A stretch of DNA of 64,000 nucleotides from Clostridia bacterium. GTDB lineage: Bacteria; Bacillota; Clostridia; Christensenellales; Aristaeellaceae. Below are positions 4,598 to 63,892 of this stretch, piece by piece. Every line of letters begins with the position of its first letter. The stretch's first letter is position 1. The position numbers and the translations under genes were made by a program. The notes beneath the pieces were generated by a model. That model had not been told where the DNA came from. It saw nothing but the letters and a program-made list of their open reading frames with translations, and searched no databases. Where the stretch lies: the NCBI GenBank assembly GCA_017395065.1, contig JAFPWH010000002.1, forward strand, positions 2,156-66,155. The letters are read 5' to 3'.

Positions 4598-4935
4598 GAT
4601 GGTATAATCATTTATGCGTTGAAGAAAAGCAGTAACCGTTTTTCCGCGCCCAAAGAGAACTGCCGGGCGGTGCGAGGCAGCGGGCGGAGGCGGTGAACTC
4701 GTTTCGGAGCATCCCTTTATGGGCGGCCGCCCGCGTTACAGGGCAAAAGAGAGGGTCTTACAAGGATCAGGAAGAGTGGTACCGCGCGTGCTTTCATGCG
4801 CCTCTTCGCCTGTAAGGGCTCTTTATTTTACGCGGACGAGGCGCCGCGCAAAAGAAATAAAGCGGCTTCAGGCCCCCTCAAACAACGAAAACACAGAACG
4901 ACCGCTTCAAGCGGGATCGTCACAAAGGAGTCGAT
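4598..4935 (+). promoter_or_regulatory. Promoter (extended -10 TGgTATAAT at 4600-4608) plus a T-box riboswitch leader of leuS.
   Basis: A ~330-nt leader lies between the promoter and the leuS ATG. It carries the conserved T-box sequence 'AGUGGUACCGCG' at 4775-4786. A candidate Leu specifier CUC sits at 4698-4700 in a 'GAACUCG' context. A U-run (ctttatttt, ~4838-4846) follows a GC-rich segment. The ORF-track start at 4796 lies inside this leader. Confidence 0.6.
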
Positions 4936-4939
4936 AACA

Positions 4940-7354
<2,415 letters not shown>

Positions 7355-50747: not shown

Positions 50748-52112
50748 ATGGATTGGGAAACTGTAAAACAACGGCTCGACGCACTGCTCGAAGCCGATAA
50801 GCGCATTGAACTTCGCGGCGCGCTCAGAATGCTCAACCGCGTGGACGTCGCGCAGTATCTGAGCGAACTGGACACCGAGAAGATGCTCAAGGTCTTCCGC
50901 ATACTGCCCAGCGAGATCTCCTCCGACGTCTTCAGCTACATGGACGACGACCAGCGCGAAAAACTGATCTCCACGATCGGCGATCAGGAGATCTGCCGTC
51001 TGGTCGACGACATGTTCATCGACGACGCGGTCGATTTTCTGGAGGACCTGCCCAGCGACCTCGTAAAGCGCGTCCTTGAAAACGTGAGCGACGACACGCG
51101 CAAGGTCATCAACCGCTTCCTCTCCTACCCCGAAAACAGCGCGGGCTCGATCATGACCATCGAGTTTTGCGCCTTCCCGGGCGATTTCACCGTGGCGCAG
51201 GCCATGAAGGAGATCCGGCGCACGGGCGTGGACAAGGAAACGATCAACACGCTCTACGTGCTGGACAAAAACGGAAAGCTGACCGGCACGCTGGCGCTCA
51301 GAAAGCTCATCAGCGCGGACGACGATCAGCCTGTAAGCGAGCTCAGCGACAGCAACTTCGTCTCCGTCGGCACGCTGGACGATCAGGAAATGGTCGCCGA
51401 GACCGTGCGCAAGTACGACCTGCTTGCCGTGCCGGTGGTCGACAAGGAAGGGCGTCCCGTGGGCATCATCACGGCCGACGACATTCTGGACGTATTGCAG
51501 GACGAGGCCACCGAGGACATCGAAAAGATGAGCGCTCTGACCCCGTCGGAGGACACCTACATGAAGACCGGCGTGTTCACGCTGGTCAAAAACAGGCTGC
51601 CGTGGCTTATGCTTATGCTTGTCGCATCGATCTTTACCGGCCTCATCATCAGCCACTACGAGGAGATTCTTACCGCGCCCGCGCTTGGGTCGATCGGCGT
51701 CGCGCTGACGGCCTGCATCCCCATGATCATGGACACGGGCGGCAACTGCGGCCAGCAGTCCTCGACGCTGATCATCCGCGGCCTCGCGACCGGCGAGGTC
51801 GGCCCGGGCGACGCGCTGAAGGTGCTCTGGAAGGAAACGCGCGTGGCGCTCCTGGTCGCCTGCGCGCTGGCCGTCGTATGTTTTCTGATACAGAAGTTCA
51901 TCTTCGGAATTGATCTGAGCGTTGCGATCACGATATCGCTTGCGATGATCTTCTGCGTGCTGTTTGCAAAAATACTGGGCGGGCTTTTGCCGCTGGGCGT
52001 GAAGGCGCTGCGCCTCGACCCGGCGCTGATCGCTTCGCCCATGATCACGACCGTCGCCGATACGTGCTCGCTGCTGATACTGTTCGTGCTGGCGACGGCG
52101 GTATTGCTGTAG
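50748..52112 (+). CDS. mgtE: Magnesium transporter MgtE
   Basis: MgtE_N ('DVAQYLSELDTEKMLKVFRILP'), tandem CBS domains, and an MgtE TM domain ('IPMIMDTGGNCGQQSSTLIIRGLATGEV'). Confidence 0.9.
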   Translation: MDWETVKQRLDALLEADKRIELRGALRMLNRVDVAQYLSELDTEKMLKVFRILPSEISSDVFSYMDDDQREKLISTIGDQEICRLVDDMFIDDAVDFLEDLPSDLVKRVLENVSDDTRKVINRFLSYPENSAGSIMTIEFCAFPGDFTVAQAMKEIRRTGVDKETINTLYVLDKNGKLTGTLALRKLISADDDQPVSELSDSNFVSVGTLDDQEMVAETVRKYDLLAVPVVDKEGRPVGIITADDILDVLQDEATEDIEKMSALTPSEDTYMKTGVFTLVKNRLPWLMLMLVASIFTGLIISHYEEILTAPALGSIGVALTACIPMIMDTGGNCGQQSSTLIIRGLATGEVGPGDALKVLWKETRVALLVACALAVVCFLIQKFIFGIDLSVAITISLAMIFCVLFAKILGGLLPLGVKALRLDPALIASPMITTVADTCSLLILFVLATAVLL

Positions 52113-52125
52113 GGGAGGTGCCGCA

Positions 52126-53460
52126 ATGGATTTTGAAACCATCAAGCAGCGCCTGGACAAGCTTCTGGACAGCGACAGGATGGGCGAGCTGCGCGGGGCG
52201 CTGATGATGCTCAACGTCGTGGACATCGCCGAATACATGGACAGCCTCGAAAAGGACAAGATGCTCAAAACCTACCGCATTTTGCCCAAGGACATCTCCG
52301 CCGAGGTCTTCACCTACCTCTCCGACGAGCAAAAGCAGTACCTGATGGAGCTCATCGGAGACAGCGAGACCGCCGAGCTCATCAGCAACATGTTCGTGGA
52401 CGACGCCGTGGACTTTCTGGAGGAGCTGCCCGCGAACCTCGTGACCCGCCTGCTCAAAAACGTCAACGAGGAGCAGCGCCGCACGATCAACCGCTTCCTT
52501 TCCTACCCCGAAAACAGCGCAGGCTCGATCATGACCATCGAGTTCTGTTCGCTCAAAGAGGGGCTGACCGTCGCCGAGGCGATGAAGTACTTAAAGCAGA
52601 ACAGCCTCGACAAGGAGACGATCTACACGCTGTACGTGCTGGGACCGTCGCACCAGCTGCGCGGCACGCTGCCGCTCAGGCGCCTGATCCTGGCAGACGA
52701 AAACGCGGTCGTCGACTCCATCATGAGCACGAACTACATCTACGCCAACACGCTGGACGATCAGGAGCAGGTGGCCGAGCTCGTGCGCAGGTACGACCTG
52801 ATGAGTGTGCCGATCGTCGACAAGGAAGGACGCATGGTGGGCATCGTCACCGCCGACGACATCATGGACGTCATCGAGGAAGAGGCCACCGAGGACATCG
52901 AAAAGATGAACGCCCTTTTGCCCTCCGAGGACGAATATTTAAAGACCAAGCCCGTAAAGCTGGCCGGCAACCGCCTGCCCTGGCTCATGTTCATGATGAT
53001 CTCGAGCATCTTTACCGAGCTCATCATCTCCCACTTTTCCGGTTCGCTCGCCGGCGCGTTCACGGCCTGCATCCCGATGCTGATGGGCACGGGCGGCAAC
53101 AGCGGCTCCCAGTCCTCGACGCTGGTGATCCGCGGCCTGGCGCTTGGCGAGATCAGCCCCGGCGACGCCTTGAAGGTGCTGTGGAAGGAATTTCGCGTTT
53201 CGCTGATCGTGAGCGCGCTGCTTGCGGTCGTGACGTTCCTGATCCAGTACTTCATCTTCGACGCCGGCATGGACGCGCTGGCGATCTCTCTTGCGATGAT
53301 CGGCACGGTGACGCTGGCCAAGTGCATCGGCTGCACGCTGCCGCTTCTGGCCAAAAAGCTCAAGCTCGACCCCGCTCTCATGGCCGCGCCGCTGATCACC
53401 ACCATCGTGGACGTGTGCTCGCTTTTGATACTGGTGCTGTGCGCCCATCTGGCTTTCTGA
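52126..53460 (+). CDS. mgtE: Magnesium transporter MgtE (second tandem paralog)
   Basis: Same architecture as mgtE-1 ('IPMLMGTGGNSGSQSSTLVIRGLALGEI'). ~55% identical to the upstream copy. Confidence 0.9.
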   Translation: MDFETIKQRLDKLLDSDRMGELRGALMMLNVVDIAEYMDSLEKDKMLKTYRILPKDISAEVFTYLSDEQKQYLMELIGDSETAELISNMFVDDAVDFLEELPANLVTRLLKNVNEEQRRTINRFLSYPENSAGSIMTIEFCSLKEGLTVAEAMKYLKQNSLDKETIYTLYVLGPSHQLRGTLPLRRLILADENAVVDSIMSTNYIYANTLDDQEQVAELVRRYDLMSVPIVDKEGRMVGIVTADDIMDVIEEEATEDIEKMNALLPSEDEYLKTKPVKLAGNRLPWLMFMMISSIFTELIISHFSGSLAGAFTACIPMLMGTGGNSGSQSSTLVIRGLALGEISPGDALKVLWKEFRVSLIVSALLAVVTFLIQYFIFDAGMDALAISLAMIGTVTLAKCIGCTLPLLAKKLKLDPALMAAPLITTIVDVCSLLILVLCAHLAF

Positions 53461-56062: not shown

Positions 56063-56077
56063 TCCTTTAACCGACGG

Positions 56078-56112
56078 GGAGCTGCCGCAGACGCGGCAGC
56101 TCCCTTTTGCAT
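56078..56112. terminator. Bidirectional terminator between the flotillin (+) and GH38 (-) genes
   Basis: ggggagctgccgc-agac-gcggcagctccc followed by TTTTGC. Confidence 0.65.
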
Positions 56113-56120
56113 CGTTTGGC

Positions 56121-59100
56121 TTATTCCTTTGTCCACGCGCCGAACACGGCGCTCAGCGGTCCGCGCCGCCCGGCGGCGTCAACCGCCCGCACGCGGTAAA
56201 AGTAGCGGCTGTGGTGCTTTAGACCCTCGTCGACGTAGCGGCCGACGCAGTATTCCTCGGGTTTGACGAAGGCGATCAGGCTGGCTTCGTTCGCTTCAAA
56301 GCCCTCCTCTTCGCCGCGGAAAAGCTCGTAGCCCTTCAGATCCTTTTCCTTCGGCGCGCCCCAGAGCAGGTAGAGCATGCCGTCCTTTTCGCCGCGCGCG
56401 GCGCAGGGCCTTTGAATGAGGCCCGTATAGGCGCTGCCGATCACGGGAACGGCTTCGCTGTTTTCTGTGTCCGTTTCGGGCGCGAAGGGGCGCAGGACGA
56501 ACCGTTCGCTCCTGAGAAGGAGCGTTCCGAAGCCGGATTCAGGCAGACTTTCCCGCGCCCTGCCGTCCACCGTGCAAAAGCTTGCCTCGGTTCTTCCGAG
56601 CAGCGCCTCGTTCCATTCGGGCATACGCAGTTCGCGGCCGTAGAGCCGAACGATCAGCGCGTCCGAATCGGGCGCGGGCTTCACGGTCAGCACGCGCGCA
56701 AAGGCGTTCAAAAGGCTTAAGCTGTCGCCCGCAAGGCACCCGTTCTGCCTGCCGACGAACGCGGTCAAAGGGGGATTGAGCAGCTTTTCGGCGAATTCCG
56801 GAAGCCCTGCCCGCACATGATCTCCCTCGTACGACGTGACCGCGTAGCGCAAGCGGAAGTTCATGTGGCTGCCGCCCGCCGAGTGCATCTGCAGCCAGTC
56901 GTTGACCAGATAGAAGTACATCGCCGAGCCCTCACCCGGCAGACCGAAGTCTGTTTTATCCGGATGAATGTGGTCGAATTCGACCAGCTCGCTGTCCCAT
57001 TGGATCACGCCTACGCCGAAATCGCCGTTTTCCGCGCAGACCCACTCGTGCGCGGCCATGTAGACGTCGGTGCCGTGACCGGTGACGTCCTTTGCGTACT
57101 CCGCTTCGCAGCCGTTGAGCGCGCATATGCGCCTTGCCGAGGGCACCTCGAAGGGGAAGGCCTGGTAGGCGTAGCGGAAGTAGCGCGCGTCGTTGTACAG
57201 TCCCCGCACGTGGCTTAACGTATTTTCGATCCGGATCAGCCTTTCGCCCCTGCGCAGGCTTACGCGCTGAAGGACGGCTGCCCCGCTCAGGGCTTCCTCC
57301 GCATGGGCGAATACCTCCGTTCCAAAGGGAGAGGTCAGCACTTCGAAGCGCGCCCGGCCCGGCACGGCGAAGCTTTTGTGCCCGTCCTGCGTCCAGACGA
57401 AGCAGTTCGCGGGAAAAGCGGCGTTTTGAGAAACGAGCTCGCGCCCGAGCGCCTTGTCGAACACGGACGCAAGGCCGCCGTTTTCCGAAAAGCGTACGCG
57501 GTAGTATTCGTTCTCGATCACGGGCGGTTCGCAGCATTCAATCTTTTGTTTTGCGTTCGGAACGAACTTGTCGAGCGGCAGTTTCGTGTATCCCATCGGC
57601 GCCAGTACCGCGCCCGGGAAGATCCTGTCCATGTATTCGACGTCCGTACGCATTTCGCGCGCCGTCGTGTTGAACGCGACCACGCACGGCCCGTCCGTAT
57701 GGATCATGGCCGATATCGCCTGAAGCGCCTTTTCCGACTCGTCTTTTGCCGTGCACAGCGCGGTGTCGATCCAGTCGCGGTGCTGCATCCAGGTTTCGTA
57801 CACCCGCCGCCCCTGATAGCCGCTCGTGCCGTAGGAATGCTCGTCGTTGCACAAGAGCGCCTTCCACGCGCGGTCGATCCTCAGGCTCGGGTAACGGAAG
57901 TCCGCGCTCACGAGCGACGCGAAGGAGCACAGTTTTTCCGCGGCGGGCAAGAGCCGGTCGGCCTCCGTCTTTTTGGCGAGCAGTTCGGGCGCGGCTATGG
58001 GGTGCTGGTACCAGCCGCCCGTGATGTCGCCGCGAAGGGTGGGGATAATGTCTCCGAAGCGCTCCCTGAGCAGCCTGAACGGCTCGTCCGGGTCGCCCAG
58101 CGTGCGAAGGCGCGGCCAGCGCCATTTTTCGTTCCACAGGGCGATCAGGTCGGTAAGACGGAGATTCGGCACCTCGTCGTCCCCGTAACAGGGCAAAAGC
58201 CACAGATCGTAGGGCACCGCCGCCTCCATGCGCGGCAGCTGTTTTGCGAAATGCGCTTCCATGCGGCGAAGGGCATAGCCGTCCGGGTAAGTATCGTAGC
58301 TGAAACCGAAGATCACCCCGCCCTGACTGTACATGCCGCCGGACCAGACGAGCAGCGGTTTTCCGCCGTGCGCGCTCTGCCAGTAGAAAACGCGCGGCAG
58401 CGAGGAACCCCAGCGCATGTCCATGCGCGAGCCGCCGCCCCCGGCTTCGGGGTTCAGCTCCGCGCCCGGCAGCGTGTGATCCATCTGCCAGACCGTGGAA
58501 ATGTGCGGGTTCCAGTGGTTCGGCGAAAAAATGACGTTTTCGTATCCTGCGTCGGAAAACGGCTGCACCATGCCCCAGGACATGCCGTTAACGTCGATCA
58601 TCGCGAGCGTTTTACACTCGACGTCCCATTCGTCCCTGAGACGTTTCCTTTCGCAGGCTGCCCGCGCCGTTTCCTCGAGGCCGAAGGTCTGCGTGTGGTT
58701 GCCAGCGAGGCTCGCGCACACGCCGATGCTCCCGGCGTGCACGTAATCCTTTACCAGCCGCCTTGCGCATTCTTCCCCGTGCTCGCCCGCGTGGCAGTCA
58801 AATACCCAGGTGCCCTCGAGCACGTAGCGGAAGCGGTCGGCTTCCTTCCTGCCCTGCGTTTCGTCGCACAGCTTCATCGCGGCGTCGACGGCCGAGGCGC
58901 TGTTGTATCGCTGAACGTAGGGCGGATTGTGCAGCCCTATGTCGGTGTGGGAGGAGATCATGACGTAAAACGTCCATTCGCGCGGGCGCTTCCAAACATC
59001 TTTATGTGAAAACACGGTTTGACCGCTTTCGTCTATGCAGACCCAGCGCACGGCTCTGTCCTCCTTCGGCGCGGGCAAAAGCACGCTGCACGCGCTCTCT

Positions 59101-59261
59101 CCCGCGCTTACGGCGAAGGAGGACGCGCACAGCTCGGCGCCCGTTTTAGCGTCGAGCGCCTTCAAAACGCAGTGCATCGTGCGCGGAGAATTTGCTTCCA
59201 GCGCGATTTTTTGCCTTCCCTCGTTGTCCACCATGGACAGCGGACGGACGTTCAGCTCCAT
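56121..59261 (-). CDS. Glycoside hydrolase family 38-like (alpha-mannosidase) with a C-terminal FN3-like domain
   Basis: ~1046 aa from the ATG at 59261 (MELNVRPLS...). 'ISSHTDIGLHNPPY' metal-binding region. Large central beta-sandwich. The C-terminal ~100 aa are FN3-like. The ORF-track N-terminal 157 aa (Arg-rich) overlap the upstream activase gene and are rejected. Confidence 0.6.
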   Translation of the reverse strand: MELNVRPLSMVDNEGRQKIALEANSPRTMHCVLKALDAKTGAELCASSFAVSAGESACSVLLPAPKEDRAVRWVCIDESGQTVFSHKDVWKRPREWTFYVMISSHTDIGLHNPPYVQRYNSASAVDAAMKLCDETQGRKEADRFRYVLEGTWVFDCHAGEHGEECARRLVKDYVHAGSIGVCASLAGNHTQTFGLEETARAACERKRLRDEWDVECKTLAMIDVNGMSWGMVQPFSDAGYENVIFSPNHWNPHISTVWQMDHTLPGAELNPEAGGGGSRMDMRWGSSLPRVFYWQSAHGGKPLLVWSGGMYSQGGVIFGFSYDTYPDGYALRRMEAHFAKQLPRMEAAVPYDLWLLPCYGDDEVPNLRLTDLIALWNEKWRWPRLRTLGDPDEPFRLLRERFGDIIPTLRGDITGGWYQHPIAAPELLAKKTEADRLLPAAEKLCSFASLVSADFRYPSLRIDRAWKALLCNDEHSYGTSGYQGRRVYETWMQHRDWIDTALCTAKDESEKALQAISAMIHTDGPCVVAFNTTAREMRTDVEYMDRIFPGAVLAPMGYTKLPLDKFVPNAKQKIECCEPPVIENEYYRVRFSENGGLASVFDKALGRELVSQNAAFPANCFVWTQDGHKSFAVPGRARFEVLTSPFGTEVFAHAEEALSGAAVLQRVSLRRGERLIRIENTLSHVRGLYNDARYFRYAYQAFPFEVPSARRICALNGCEAEYAKDVTGHGTDVYMAAHEWVCAENGDFGVGVIQWDSELVEFDHIHPDKTDFGLPGEGSAMYFYLVNDWLQMHSAGGSHMNFRLRYAVTSYEGDHVRAGLPEFAEKLLNPPLTAFVGRQNGCLAGDSLSLLNAFARVLTVKPAPDSDALIVRLYGRELRMPEWNEALLGRTEASFCTVDGRARESLPESGFGTLLLRSERFVLRPFAPETDTENSEAVPVIGSAYTGLIQRPCAARGEKDGMLYLLWGAPKEKDLKGYELFRGEEEGFEANEASLIAFVKPEEYCVGRYVDEGLKHHSRYFYRVRAVDAAGRRGPLSAVFGAWTKE

Positions 59262-59296: not shown

Positions 59297-60199
59297 TTAC
59301 CGATTCACGCCGACCGGCACGCGGACGCTGCTTCGCAGCCGCTTTGCAAAATCCTCCGTTTCGTCCTTCGTGGGCGCCGCAGCGCGAAAGCCTTCCGCCC
59401 GGCTGAGGCGAAAAGCCTTCTGTGCGCCCAGCGCGTGATAAGGCTCCAGGTCGATTTGAACGACGCCGTCCAGGCGATTTGCGAGGGACGCGATCGCCTC
59501 CGCGTGCTCCTTCGAAAAATTTACGCCCGGGACGAGCGGGCAGCGCAAAACGATGCGCGCGCCTGCGCTGCTGAGATAAGCGAGGTTTTGCAGTATGCGC
59601 TCGTTCCCAGCGCCGGTACAGCGCGCGTGCGCCGCGCTGTCCATGAGTTTGAAATCGTAAAGAAAAAGATCGACGAAGGGCAGTATACGCGCCATTTCTT
59701 CCTGCCTGCAGAACCCGCAGGTTTCCAGACACACGTTCAGGCCGGCTGCGCGGGCGCTTCTTGCGAGCGTCAGCGCAAAGGCGGCCTGCGCCATGGGCTC
59801 CCCGCCGGTCAGCGTGAGCCCTCCGCCGCTTTCATTGAAAAACTCCCTGTCGCGCAGCGCGAGCTCGATTATTTCTTCGCTGTCCGTCTCTTTTCCGCAT
59901 TTCTCCAGCGCGCCGGACGGGCAGACTTCTTCGCACTTCCCGCAGGCGTCGCAAGATGCGCGCTCAAACGCGTGTCCCGCTGCGCCGAGAACGTGCAGCT
60001 TCTTCGGGCAGACCTTTTCGCACGCGCCGCAGCCGATGCAGCGCTTCGGGTCGAAGAGCAATTCGGCTTCGCTTTTCTGCGATTCCGGGTTATGGCACCA
60101 AGCGCAGCGCAGAGGACAGCCCTTCAAAAACACCGCCGTGCGGATGCCGGGCCCGTCGTGTACGCAGAAGCGCTGAATGTTGAAAATCAGCCCCTTCAT
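59297..60199 (-). CDS. Glycyl-radical enzyme activating enzyme (radical SAM, with a ferredoxin-like insert)
   Basis: 'CPLRCAWCHNPE' CxxxCxxC radical-SAM motif. Two extra Cys clusters (CIGCGACEKVCP; CDACGKCEEVCP). 'GGLTLTGGEP'. Confidence 0.9.
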   Translation of the reverse strand: MKGLIFNIQRFCVHDGPGIRTAVFLKGCPLRCAWCHNPESQKSEAELLFDPKRCIGCGACEKVCPKKLHVLGAAGHAFERASCDACGKCEEVCPSGALEKCGKETDSEEIIELALRDREFFNESGGGLTLTGGEPMAQAAFALTLARSARAAGLNVCLETCGFCRQEEMARILPFVDLFLYDFKLMDSAAHARCTGAGNERILQNLAYLSSAGARIVLRCPLVPGVNFSKEHAEAIASLANRLDGVVQIDLEPYHALGAQKAFRLSRAEGFRAAAPTKDETEDFAKRLRSSVRVPVGVNR

Positions 60200-60202
60200 C
60201 CG

Positions 60203-62311
60203 CTATACCTCGTGCGAGGTCCTAAGAAGCACCTCTTCCTGCATTTCGGGGGATAGCTTTACGAAATAGTCGCTGTAGCCGCCGATTCGCACCACCAGAT
60301 CGCGGTAGCTCTCCGGGTCTGCCTGCGCCCTGATCAGCGTTTCGCGGTCCACGACGTTGATCTGCATCTCGAAACCGCCGCGGCGCAGATAAGTCTTTAT
60401 CAGCGCGGCCGCTTTGGTGCAGGATTCCGCGGTAAAAGTGCTCTTCGTGAACTTCATGTTGACCGCGACGCCGCCGATCAGCTCCCTGTGCGGCCATTTC
60501 GTGCAGGAGAGGATCGACGCCGTGGGCCCGTTCTTTTCCCTGCCCTGACACGGGCCGGAGCCGTCGCCCAGCGGAAAGCCTGCGTGCCGCCCGTCCGGGG
60601 ACGCGCCGGTCCTGCGCCCGAAATACTCGTGCTTGACCCAGCAGAATACGCTGGGGATGAGGCGCGCGTTCGGGAGCATCGGCTCATATTTTTTGCACTC
60701 GGAAACGATGTGCCTGATCAGAAAGTCGAACAATTCGTCCACGCGGTCGACGTCGTTTCCGTATTTGTCCACGCGGTCCAGCATTTTGAGACGCATGGCT
60801 TCACAGCCCTCAAAATCGCTGTCCAGCATTTCCTTGAGTGCTTCGAAGCTCAGTTCCTTCTTTTCAAAGATAAGCGTGCGGATGACCTCGAGCGAATCGA
60901 CGAGGTTCGCCATGCCGACGAAGCTGGGCATGATCCAGTTGTACCGCGCGCCGCCGCGCTCGATGTCCGTGCCGCGAAGCAGGCAGTCGTTTACGAAGCA
61001 GGACAGCAGCGGGTTGATCGTGCGCTCCGCCCGCAAGGCGCGGTATCTGTTCTGCTCCTCGAAGTTTTTGCGGATGGATTCGTCCAGATGCTTTAGCAGC
61101 GCCTGTGTCAGCGCGTCGAACGACGGCCACGGGCGGTCGAGCAGATCCAAAAGCAGCTGGAGCATGTTCGTGTACGGGCTCGCCACCCAAACGTTGCTCG
61201 AGGCCTCGGGCGTGATCTCCACACAGGTGCTGTGAATGTAGCTGTGCGCCTCCGCTTCCGGCACGCCGTATTCTATAAGCCCTGCGCTGATCACGTCGTC
61301 GTTGAAGATCGCGGGATGGGAACGCCCGTGCGAGAGGATCTCGCAGGCCTGTAGGAGCATTTCTTCCGGCATGCCCTCCGTCATGCAAAGGCCCACGGAG
61401 GGGTACACCAGACGCACGTCCTCGATGACCTGAAGCCCCATCCGGGTAAGCTCGTTTGCGACGATATCGCCCTTTGGATTCCTGCCGCCCAGCATGTACC
61501 CGCTGGACAGGCCGCGCGGCACGCGGTTGTTGATCTGTATGGCAAGACAGTCCAAAAGCGTCTGTGCTTCGGCATCCGTGAGTTTCCCGGCGTCCCGGTC
61601 GGCGCGGTAGTAGGGATAGAGGTAGCGGTCGGGCCGCCCCAGCTGGAATTGCTGCATCGAAAAATAGCGGTGCGGGTTCATCGAAAGGCAAAACGTCAAA
61701 AAATGCACCGACTGAACGGCTTCATAAAAACTCTCTGCGGGCTTTGCGGGCACCCGGCGGCAGATTTCCGCGATTCTGCACAGCTCCTTCCGGCGCGTTT
61801 CGTCCTTGCAGCTTTCGGCAAGATGATCGGCGTGCGCGGCGTAGCGCAGCGAAAAATCGCTTACCGCCTTAAGACACGCAAGGCACGCGCCGTAAAACGC
61901 GATTTTGCTATCGTCCGTTGTACCTTCGAGCAGCTTTCTCACGCGCGCGGAAACGCCGATAAGCCCTTCCCTCAAGAGCAGTTCGTAATCCACGGCCATG
62001 TGGGAGTCCTGGCCGATGCGAAGGCCCATGGGATCGGCGACCTCTTTTCGCAGCTTCTCCCAGCGCGCCGCCTCCTCGCCGACCGGCGCGGCGGGCGCTT
62101 TGCCCACGATCAGCTCGCCCTCGCCGATCACGGGCTCAACGGAGGCAAGCGCATGCGCGAACGCGTCCGCGTAGCGCGCTTGCGTGCTTCCCTTGTCCGC
62201 GTTCAGCTGCCATCGCTCGAAGAATTTCAGATAGAACCCGTCGTAACAGATCGCGGGCTCCAGCGCCTCTTTCCTGAGCTTTTCTATGCGCCGCCTGTCA
62301 AAATCGCACAT
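60203..62311 (-). CDS. Glycyl radical enzyme, PFL2/glycerol-dehydratase-like eliminase class, unusually compact (702 aa)
   Basis: C-terminal glycyl-radical motif 'RIGGYSDYF'. Active-site loop 'STCVEITPE' (Cys-x-Glu, typical of dehydratase/lyase GREs). 4 nt upstream of its activase. Confidence 0.8.
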   Translation of the reverse strand: MCDFDRRRIEKLRKEALEPAICYDGFYLKFFERWQLNADKGSTQARYADAFAHALASVEPVIGEGELIVGKAPAAPVGEEAARWEKLRKEVADPMGLRIGQDSHMAVDYELLLREGLIGVSARVRKLLEGTTDDSKIAFYGACLACLKAVSDFSLRYAAHADHLAESCKDETRRKELCRIAEICRRVPAKPAESFYEAVQSVHFLTFCLSMNPHRYFSMQQFQLGRPDRYLYPYYRADRDAGKLTDAEAQTLLDCLAIQINNRVPRGLSSGYMLGGRNPKGDIVANELTRMGLQVIEDVRLVYPSVGLCMTEGMPEEMLLQACEILSHGRSHPAIFNDDVISAGLIEYGVPEAEAHSYIHSTCVEITPEASSNVWVASPYTNMLQLLLDLLDRPWPSFDALTQALLKHLDESIRKNFEEQNRYRALRAERTINPLLSCFVNDCLLRGTDIERGGARYNWIMPSFVGMANLVDSLEVIRTLIFEKKELSFEALKEMLDSDFEGCEAMRLKMLDRVDKYGNDVDRVDELFDFLIRHIVSECKKYEPMLPNARLIPSVFCWVKHEYFGRRTGASPDGRHAGFPLGDGSGPCQGREKNGPTASILSCTKWPHRELIGGVAVNMKFTKSTFTAESCTKAAALIKTYLRRGGFEMQINVVDRETLIRAQADPESYRDLVVRIGGYSDYFVKLSPEMQEEVLLRTSHEV

Positions 62312-62518
62312 GCTCCCGCCTCCCCGAGAAAAACCTCTTTTCTGCCTTCATGATACCACAGGATCGCCCGCTTTTCAAGCGCATATAAAAATGTATCGAA
62401 AAACAGCATAACAGACCCGGCGCGTCCCGACGGCGGGCGTCAAAAAACCCCGCCGCTGAGGACGGGGTTCGTTTACTATCGGATTTTGCGCAGATCGGCA
62501 AAGCCGCAGGCCGCTTTT

Positions 62519-63688
62519 TCAGACGCGCTCGATCTCTTCCCTCAATATGCTCACGGCCTTTTCCAGCTCCTCGAAGCCGATCGTCAGTGGGGGCAGCAGG
62601 CGCACCTTGGCCTTCGCGGTCAAAACCAGTACGCCGCGCGCCAGACACGCGCCCGCGATCTCGCCGGCACTGCGCTCGGTTTCCAGCCCCAGCATGAGGC
62701 CCATGCCGCTGATGCTTTTGAGGCCTTTCGCGCCGTTCAACTTGTCGACGATGAAGGCGCTCCTTTCGCGCACGCCCTGCAAAAGCGCGTCGTCGATCCT
62801 CTCCAGTATGCTGATCGCACCGGCGCACACGGCGGGGTTTCCACCGAAGGTCGAGCCGTGGTCGCCGTATCCCAGCGTGTTTTCCGCCTTTTCGCCCAGG
62901 AGACAGGCGCCGATGGGCAGCCCGCCGCCCAAGCCCTTGGCCGTGGTCACGATGTCCGGCTGACGCTCGAAGTTCATGTAGCTGAAGAGCCTGCCGCTGC
63001 GCCCGTTGCCGGTCTGCACCTCGTCGACGATGAACAGCATGTCCTTCTCTTTGCACAATTGCCAGATGCCCTTCACAAAGCCGTAGTTCAGCGGCATCAC
63101 GCCGCCTTCGCCCTGCACCATTTCAACCATGACCGCGCAGCAGCCGTTTTCTTCGCTGAGCCGCTTTACGTCCGAAAGGTTGTTGGCCTCCGCGTACACG
63201 AAGCCCGGCGTGAACGGGCCGAAGAAGCGGTGAAAGTGATCCTGCCCCGTGGCCGAGAGCATGCCGAGCGTGCGCCCGTGGAAGCTGTTTTTCAGCGTGA
63301 TCACCGTGGAATGGCTCTCGTCGCCGTATTTGTCGTAAGCGTACTTGCGCGCCGCCTTGACCGCGCACTCGTTGGCCTCCGCGCCGGAATTTGCGAAGAA
63401 GACCTTCTTCATGCCGGTCCTCTCGCACAGCATTTTCGCCAGCTTTCCGCAGGGTTCGGTGTGATATAAATTGGAAGAATGGGGCAGCGCGTCCAGCTGC
63501 GCCGTCACGGCCTGCTTCCATTTTTCGTCGCCGTAGCCGAAGATGTTGACCGCAATGCCGCTGCCCAGATCGATGTATTCCTTGCCGTTTTCGTCCCAGG
63601 CCTTTGCACCCTTGCCCCGGACCAGCGCCACGGGAAAGCGCTTGTAGGTGTTTGCGACGTATTGATGATCGGTTTCTATGATGCTCAT
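62519..63688 (-). CDS. Class-III (acetylornithine/ornithine/GABA-type) pyridoxal-phosphate aminotransferase
   Basis: 'GSGIAVNIFGY', 'NSGAEANECAVKAARKY', 'DEVQTGNGRSGRLF', 'TTAKGLGGGLPIGA' (Schiff-base Lys). Confidence 0.85.
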   Translation of the reverse strand: MSIIETDHQYVANTYKRFPVALVRGKGAKAWDENGKEYIDLGSGIAVNIFGYGDEKWKQAVTAQLDALPHSSNLYHTEPCGKLAKMLCERTGMKKVFFANSGAEANECAVKAARKYAYDKYGDESHSTVITLKNSFHGRTLGMLSATGQDHFHRFFGPFTPGFVYAEANNLSDVKRLSEENGCCAVMVEMVQGEGGVMPLNYGFVKGIWQLCKEKDMLFIVDEVQTGNGRSGRLFSYMNFERQPDIVTTAKGLGGGLPIGACLLGEKAENTLGYGDHGSTFGGNPAVCAGAISILERIDDALLQGVRERSAFIVDKLNGAKGLKSISGMGLMLGLETERSAGEIAGACLARGVLVLTAKAKVRLLPPLTIGFEELEKAVSILREEIERV

Positions 63689-63892
63689 GTCTTATCCGCC
63701 TTTTGCTTTGATGCAGCGATTATACCCCATAAGCACCCGTCTGTAAATCAAATAATTGAAAAATATGCGCATATTTTTCAGGCATGATTGCAAAAACGAT
63801 GCATACAGTGTATATCTATGCATAGATGAAGCGCGGCACGGCCCGGCGGGAAATCCGAATTGTAAACACTTCGTAAATTACAAAATTCCCTC

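Follow-up and report, generated by a model that had tools for sequence, protein, structure and literature searches.

The window analysed here, a 64,000-nt stretch of the Clostridia bacterium contig JAFPWH010000002.1 whose positions serve as coordinates throughout, carries a gene for a compact glycyl radical enzyme (GRE) of 702 aa (60203..62311, minus strand) with Pfam PFL-like and Gly_radical domains. It stands among genes for a 300-aa GRE-activating radical SAM enzyme (59297..60199), recognised by TIGR02494 and by its motifs, for a 1046-aa protein distantly resembling GH38 enzymes (56121..59261, a gene call with weak domain matches) and, outside the module, for a 389-aa acetylornithine aminotransferase, ArgD (62519..63688; Aminotran_3, 332 bits). 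In the open reading frame (ORF) listing all four of these genes map to the minus strand, at the positions and in the orientation given by an initial annotation that had been made from the DNA letters alone. That annotation had also described a class-III aminotransferase some 200 nt upstream of the GRE, and the gap is 207 nt. Its 4-nt spacing between GRE and activase proved to be 3 nt from stop to start.

A GGGGAGG ribosome-binding site precedes the GRE start codon at 62311, and further upstream on the same strand lies a promoter-like site (62350..62378; TTGAAA-17-TATCAT with an extended -10 TG, a consensus match only). The activase, starting 3 nt after the GRE stop, is translationally coupled to the GRE. 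Between the activase stop and the start of the GH38-like gene there are 35 nt; these carry a ribosome-binding site (AAGGAG) and are free of hairpins, and the GH38-like gene probably stands third in the GRE operon. Beyond it, a GC-rich hairpin with a perfect 12-bp stem, read from the sequence as GGGAGCTGCCGC-GTCT-GCGGCAGCTCCC (56077..56104, no strand assigned), separates the GH38-like gene from the Band_7/flotillin gene that converges on it; the T-run of this hairpin lies on the plus-strand side only. This hairpin is likely the end of the GRE operon, and may act as a bidirectional terminator. Given the hairpin-free spacer with its ribosome-binding site and the 12-bp hairpin that follows the GH38-like gene, the transcription unit is most likely GRE-activase-GH38-like. 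The exact GRE protein occurs on 13 public contigs, which probably belong to the same species, and the gene order is identical at 5 of the 13, namely those that were listed.

The features that define the GRE superfamily are all found at this locus. The protein matches the PFL-like barrel with 361 bits (from model position 157) and the C-terminal Gly_radical domain with 90 bits. Its Gly loop reads VVRIGGYSDYF and contains Gly678, and its Cys loop reads HSTCVEITPE and contains Cys363 and Glu365, so that the RIGGY motif and the TCVEITPE loop picked out in the initial annotation are both present. The partner activase scores 333.5 bits against the cut-off of 174 of TIGR02494, a generic model for GRE activases, and reaches no equivalog cut-off; its CX3CX2C motif is CPLRCAWC (residues 28-35), and it carries two CX2CX2CX3C ferredoxin-type motifs (residues 54-64 and 83-93). 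The earlier description of a Cys-x-Glu type GRE with a dedicated activase bearing two ferredoxin-type motifs is thus borne out. The C363-V-E365 arrangement that marks this class is kept in all 42 representatives of the clade described below. On the minus strand, the catalytic codons lie at 62002..62000 (His104), 61225..61223 (Cys363), 61219..61217 (Glu365) and 60280..60278 (Gly678). His104, Cys363, Glu365 and Gly678 are invariant in a 40-sequence family alignment with a mean column identity of 69%, as are the RIGGY and HSTCVE contexts of Gly678 and Cys363. His104 pairs in the alignment with His164, the general acid in glycerol dehydratase, and the His, Cys and Glu together align with their counterparts in glycerol and propanediol dehydratases and in PflD and YbiW of Escherichia coli. 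The structure model predicts the full GRE barrel.

The initial annotation had called the enzyme compact and had considered an N-terminal truncation. The short length is genuine and conserved, and the loss is internal rather than N-terminal. A miscalled start codon was rejected because an in-frame TGA lies 13 codons 5' of the GRE ATG, with no start codon in between, because the length is conserved and because the N-terminus aligns with that of known enzymes. The best 120 database homologues, 58-99% identical, measure 690-729 aa when full length, and 80 loci from GTDB genomes match nearly the whole GRE query wherever the contig permits. In a profile alignment, residues 4-75 pair with residues 8-79 of glycerol dehydratase, showing an intact N-terminus. 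When the window enzyme was mapped against 51 GRE representatives of canonical length, the latter were found to carry about 63 extra residues between its residues 70 and 100 (ELIVGK to GQDSH), with smaller surpluses of about 5, 9 and 6 residues after its residues 133, 262 and 392, respectively. The roughly 63 residues are therefore absent internally, from the N-terminal helical region. As helices of this region form the dimer interface of canonical GREs (PMC13450708), it is possible that the deletion altered the quaternary structure or the docking of the activase.

As judged from sequence comparison, the window GRE sits outside every characterised GRE clade, since it meets no equivalog cut-off, shows low identity to known enzymes and separates from them at the midpoint root of a tree. 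This placement agrees with the initial annotation, which had assigned the enzyme to no known clade and proposed a phylogeny as the check. Among the NCBIfam models, the enzyme scores 334 against the HypD cut-off of 1100, 290 against 1050 for CutC, 313 and 287 against 1000 for the two sulfopropanediol dehydratase (HpsG/HpfG) equivalogs, 242 against 1100 for indoleacetate decarboxylase, 194 against 1150 for hydroxyphenylacetate decarboxylase, 338 against 1109 for PRK09983 and 97.6 bits against 994 for pyruvate formate-lyase (TIGR01255), that is, 3- to 10-fold under these cut-offs. The PFL2-3 subfamily model TIGR01774, covering glycerol and propanediol dehydratases, was not reached either (427 versus 678). 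The adjacent Cys-Cys pair of pyruvate formate-lyase is not present, the loop reading T-C-V-E. Identity to solved GREs is 19-31%, with eliminases and isomerases structurally equidistant at 26-31%. Of 1.84 billion cluster representatives scanned with HMMER, 1854 had E<=1e-30, the top matches being mostly proteins of 680-750 aa with 35-55% identity, and canonical GREs of 780-850 aa appearing only from about 36%.

The tree was built by MAFFT alignment and neighbour-joining of 128 full-length representatives, and its midpoint root splits off 42 of them, including the window protein. At 50% identity this compact clade, none of it characterised, comes to at least 42 clusters; at 90%, the family of the window enzyme alone accounts for more than 120. 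His104, Cys363, Glu365 and Gly678 are retained in each of the 42 members. Apart from the internal deletion of about 63 residues, the clade is recognised by a Ser-Thr-Cys-Val-Glu Cys loop, in which Thr precedes the catalytic Cys in 37/42 members (Gly holds this position in 74/86 outside the clade), and by a 3-residue insertion before the catalytic His (G-x3-H), found in 40/42. Its members measure about 680-775 aa, 40/42 being shorter than 760 aa, with a median of 716 aa versus 801 aa in canonical GREs. All ten clade representatives that were checked originate from metagenomes or metagenome-assembled genomes, and the bacteria that carry the clade are for the most part uncultured Clostridia of gut and rumen. 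No characterised GRE of about 700 aa appears in a 2026 review of the superfamily, according to which entire GRE clades are still without a validated function (PMC13450708). Literature searches on PflD and YbiW, on similarity networks, on recent GREs and on links between GREs and glycosidases yielded nothing on the compact clade, and neither an Accounts review nor the paper on aminoacyl radical enzymes (AAREs; PMC11528403) holds information on it. Like the AAREs, the compact enzymes are distributed in Eubacteriales and have a highly variable genomic context; unlike them, their radical residue is an invariant Gly (RIGGY) and not Ala, Ser or Thr (PMC11528403). Outside the compact clade, one 794-aa representative (P0252) has an RVATY radical loop in which Thr replaces Gly, and is a relative of the AARE/TRE type.

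Gene neighbourhoods of related loci were called by us with a codon model, which reproduces the public calls in the window, and then clustered; 71 same-strand neighbours were examined in a pooled Pfam scan, and a further three scans covered 10 proteins each. An activase lies directly downstream of the GRE in 39 of the 66 loci with enough flank. A divergent AraC-type regulator (Pfam cupin/AraC_binding and HTH_18) is found upstream of the GRE in 31/72 loci, and in most relatives it is probably this regulator that senses the substrate. It is absent from the subclade of at least 70% identity to which the window GRE belongs, and neither an AraC regulator of the family type nor a second GRE was found elsewhere in the window. 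Some other contigs carry two or more GRE paralogues or a GRE-activase-GRE arrangement. In L002 and in L093 (8001..13583), a single activase has a compact GRE paralogue on either side, a layout resembling the two-enzymes-per-activase organisation of threonine-radical AAREs (PMC11528403).

The same-strand neighbours in this family match a range of glycosidase families, several of them weakly: GH38 in the window (a weak match), GH106 in L011 (its cluster-mate L032 was outside the scan), GH43/32 together with DUF5722 in L013, GH29 with F5/8 type C domains in L016, heparinase II/III in L034, GH127 in L054, and GH51 with GHL10 within a sugar ABC transporter locus in the P0056 loci. PfkB kinase, HAD phosphatase and inositol monophosphatase are also among the family neighbours. 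The GH38 mannosidase-like gene of the initial annotation is located downstream as described, with a match that is weak: GH38N reaches 26 bits versus a threshold of 25, GH38C 24.8 versus 25 and the middle domain 20 versus 31. The best PDB match of the protein is alpha-mannosidase 7ufs (E=2e-4), and it has no NCBIfam match.

Sugar-related contexts recur in the wider clade. In three other subfamilies, P0126, P0130 and P0146, which are 38-43% identical to the window GRE, a short-chain dehydrogenase (SDR) of 244-246 aa is encoded 11-14 nt upstream of the GRE (L092 7255..10169; L098 4154..7035; L102 7253..10106), and this SDR-GRE pair looks like part of a sugar pathway. Genes for sugar ABC transporters are found in both L092 and L102, as is a histidine kinase accompanied by a response regulator of the AraC type; L092 further encodes GH130, GH78 and the acetyl-xylan esterase AXE1, and L098 a DHDPS-type aldolase. 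The P0136 gene adjoins two GntR/LacI-type regulators and a GH66 gene, and a LacI regulator lies downstream of the P0127 gene. Taken together, the SDR, sugar transporters, regulators and glycosidases support a carbohydrate-derived substrate class for the whole clade. Directly upstream of the P0127 GRE, an 86-aa ORF (L104 84..344) consists of a Gly_radical domain only, similar to the GrcA spare part.

With this in mind, we consider it rather probable that the three-gene operon encodes a functional, biochemically uncharacterised GRE, one that would cleave a C-O bond in a carbohydrate-derived substrate. The enzyme is best read as a putative radical 1,2-eliminase or isomerase, and its substrate would belong to the neutral or phosphorylated hydroxy compounds derived from carbohydrates. 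According to this reading, the activase would install a radical on Gly678, from where it would move to Cys363. The Cys363 thiyl would then abstract a hydrogen from a carbon whose hydroxyl is hydrogen-bonded to Glu365. With Glu365 removing a proton and His104 donating one to the adjacent leaving group, the C-O bond would be cleaved, either as a 1,2-elimination (dehydration) or as a ring-opening isomerisation. In the last step the product radical would regain a hydrogen from Cys363, giving a carbonyl product. These proposed steps are modelled on those summarised for glycerol dehydratase and for the isomerases (PMC13450708). Within the family, positions 101-103, 219-224 and 267-273 do not vary, but they differ between the subfamilies of the clade, and therefore show the pattern expected of specificity determinants.

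One may speculate further that the compact branch is a large, wholly uncharacterised group which performs radical chemistry new to GREs on glycan-derived sugars, and in which the deletion has altered quaternary structure or activase docking. We put forward this wider proposal as a tentative one, and somewhat doubt it. Such chemistry may, for example, directly dehydrate or deoxygenate sugars or open their rings, whether the sugars are free or phosphorylated, and in some subfamilies sugar chemistry may be paired with SDRs and sugar ABC transporters.

Several observations weigh against a carbohydrate-directed eliminase or isomerase. In the window's family, clustering and Pfam scans revealed no recurrent partner beyond the AraC regulator and the activase. 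The linkage of the GH38-like gene to the GRE is seen only in the source species. Gut Clostridia are rich in carbohydrate-active enzymes, and some adjacency to glycosidases is expected by chance. There is no activase within two genes of the GRE in 26/66 loci (L006, L016, L034 and L058, for example); in these, the activase may be encoded elsewhere or be common to paralogues. AlphaFold2 (AF2) confidence falls below 50 at GRE residues 559-588 (about 60548..60637), a stretch (…ASPDGRxAGFPLGDGSGPCQGRE) that is almost invariant in the family despite the low value and could be a mobile loop or reflect a shallow alignment. Pocket positions were mapped by sequence alignment only. Lastly, the catalytic His, Cys and Glu are common to dehydratases and isomerases; the His was tried as a discriminator between them and failed, and since PflD and YbiW carry the same His as the dehydratases, the reaction type is not separable by sequence.

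An alternative, which we regard as rather unlikely, is that the enzyme employs this radical machinery specifically as an isomerase like YbiW or PflD, opening a cyclic sugar phosphate or other sugar derivative at its C-O bond, and not as a dehydratase or lyase from which a leaving group departs. The E. coli ybiW gene adjoins a HAD sugar phosphatase and pflD adjoins the regulator YijO, which we take to be of the AraC type; comparable HAD, inositol monophosphatase and PfkB neighbours are found in the family loci. The His, the Cys-x-Glu pair and the Gly are also the same, and a carbohydrate substrate class is plausible for both groups. On the other hand, identity to PflD and YbiW is just 30-32%, these enzymes measure 765 and 810 aa with a canonical GC[VI]E loop compared with 702 aa and STCVE in the window GRE, and neither a phosphotransferase system (PTS) nor an aldolase is a recurrent partner among the family loci; at the window locus itself there is no PTS or fructose-6-phosphate aldolase partner. 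YbiW and PflD convert 1,5-anhydroglucitol-6-phosphate and 1,5-anhydromannitol-6-phosphate to 1-deoxyfructose-6-phosphate (PMC13450708).

That the enzyme is a divergent or shortened orthologue of a characterised GRE acting on the same substrate is very unlikely. Candidates for such a relationship are glycerol/1,2-propanediol dehydratase, HypD, HpyG, HpzG, CutC, IslA, IseG, HpsG, HpfG, PflD and YbiW, yet none of the equivalog scores comes near its cut-off (with 427 versus 678 for the PFL2-3 model), the structural neighbours are all equidistant at 26-31% identity, and the clade stands apart from canonical GREs at the midpoint root. The B12-independent glycerol/1,2-propanediol dehydratases (PDB 1R8W/1R9D, 5I2A/5I2G and 9RCO) are about 29% identical and share the Cys-x-Glu pair, the general-acid His and the Gly loop; their activase, too, carries two ferredoxin-type motifs. 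The window GRE is 85-140 residues shorter than these enzymes, about 63 residues being deleted between the ELIVG and G-x3-H motifs, and has STCVE in place of GCVEP in its Cys loop. In the alignment the equivalent of His164 is kept, whereas glycerol dehydratase His281/Ser282 correspond to Gln220/Gln221, within an invariant QQFQLGR motif, and His446/Asp447 to Val376/Ala377. We presume these four replaced positions to contact glycerol in glycerol dehydratase. No genes for a microcompartment shell, an aldehyde dehydrogenase or a 1,3-propanediol dehydrogenase were found among the neighbours scanned. HypD, HpyG, HpzG and CutC are 27-28% identical to the window GRE, which scores 3- to 4-fold below the equivalog cut-offs, and no proline/pyrroline-5-carboxylate pathway or cut-cluster genes were found among the neighbours scanned.

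The initial annotation had suggested that aminotransferase and GRE form one pathway, in Stickland-type amino-acid or amino-sugar catabolism. The two genes are adjacent, share their orientation across the 207-nt gap, and keep this arrangement in the five listed contigs out of 13, which are probably of one species. We nevertheless judge a common pathway highly improbable. The aminotransferase passes the models for ArgD (TIGR00707, 415.1 versus 410.05; PRK01278, 376 versus 372). It has a strong promoter-like site of its own (63747..63719, minus strand; a promoter scan match at 11/12 consensus positions) and is followed, within the gap, by a predicted hairpin and U-run terminator (62442..62470, minus strand; RNA fold dG -17.1 kcal/mol, z -2.5), which would separate argD from the GRE operon. 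The promoter-like site of the GRE, distinct from that of argD, then follows in the same gap. A tblastn search of 80 related GRE loci, with flanks of up to +/-10 kb each, gave no match to ArgD or to the GH38-like protein, and no class-III aminotransferase was among the top-25 families of the 71 pooled neighbours or among the 30 scanned individually. The pairing fails because ArgD comes with a promoter-like site and a terminator of its own and is missing from the 80 loci, and conservation of the aminotransferase-GRE-activase order, which the initial annotation had proposed to check, is likewise not seen, the activase being the only one of its partners to recur. The aminotransferase is therefore a housekeeping ArgD unrelated to the GRE, and it is by coincidence that the two genes adjoin each other in one species.

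Finally, NCBI labels members of the family 'hypothetical protein' or 'pyruvate formate lyase family protein', and many loci are without an adjacent activase, but a degenerate, non-catalytic relic or a C-C lyase of the pyruvate formate-lyase type is barely credible, given that none of the 40 family members and 42 clade representatives departs from the catalytic residues and that mean column identity within the family is 69%.

Elsewhere in the window, a T-box leader (4610..4808, plus strand; Rfam RF00230, 93.3 bits versus a gathering score of 93) is located directly upstream of an 852-aa ORF (4796..7354), which probably encodes an aminoacyl-tRNA synthetase; such a leader fits a Bacillota genome. 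Tandem paralogues of an MgtE-type magnesium transporter (50748..52112 and 52126..53460, plus strand), with MgtE_N, CBS and MgtE domains, are encoded 13 nt apart.

GREs are behind the formation of trimethylamine, H2S, p-cresol and skatole and the use of hydroxyproline and anhydro-sugars, with relevance to health and agriculture. The compact clade described here is abundant in rumen and hindgut Clostridia, has a distinct architecture and is found repeatedly within carbohydrate-utilisation loci. With the misleading lead of the ArgD adjacency removed, assignment of a substrate to this clade could reveal an overlooked anaerobic route for sugars derived from plant or host glycans, and the compact GRE would offer a smaller scaffold for structural and engineering work.

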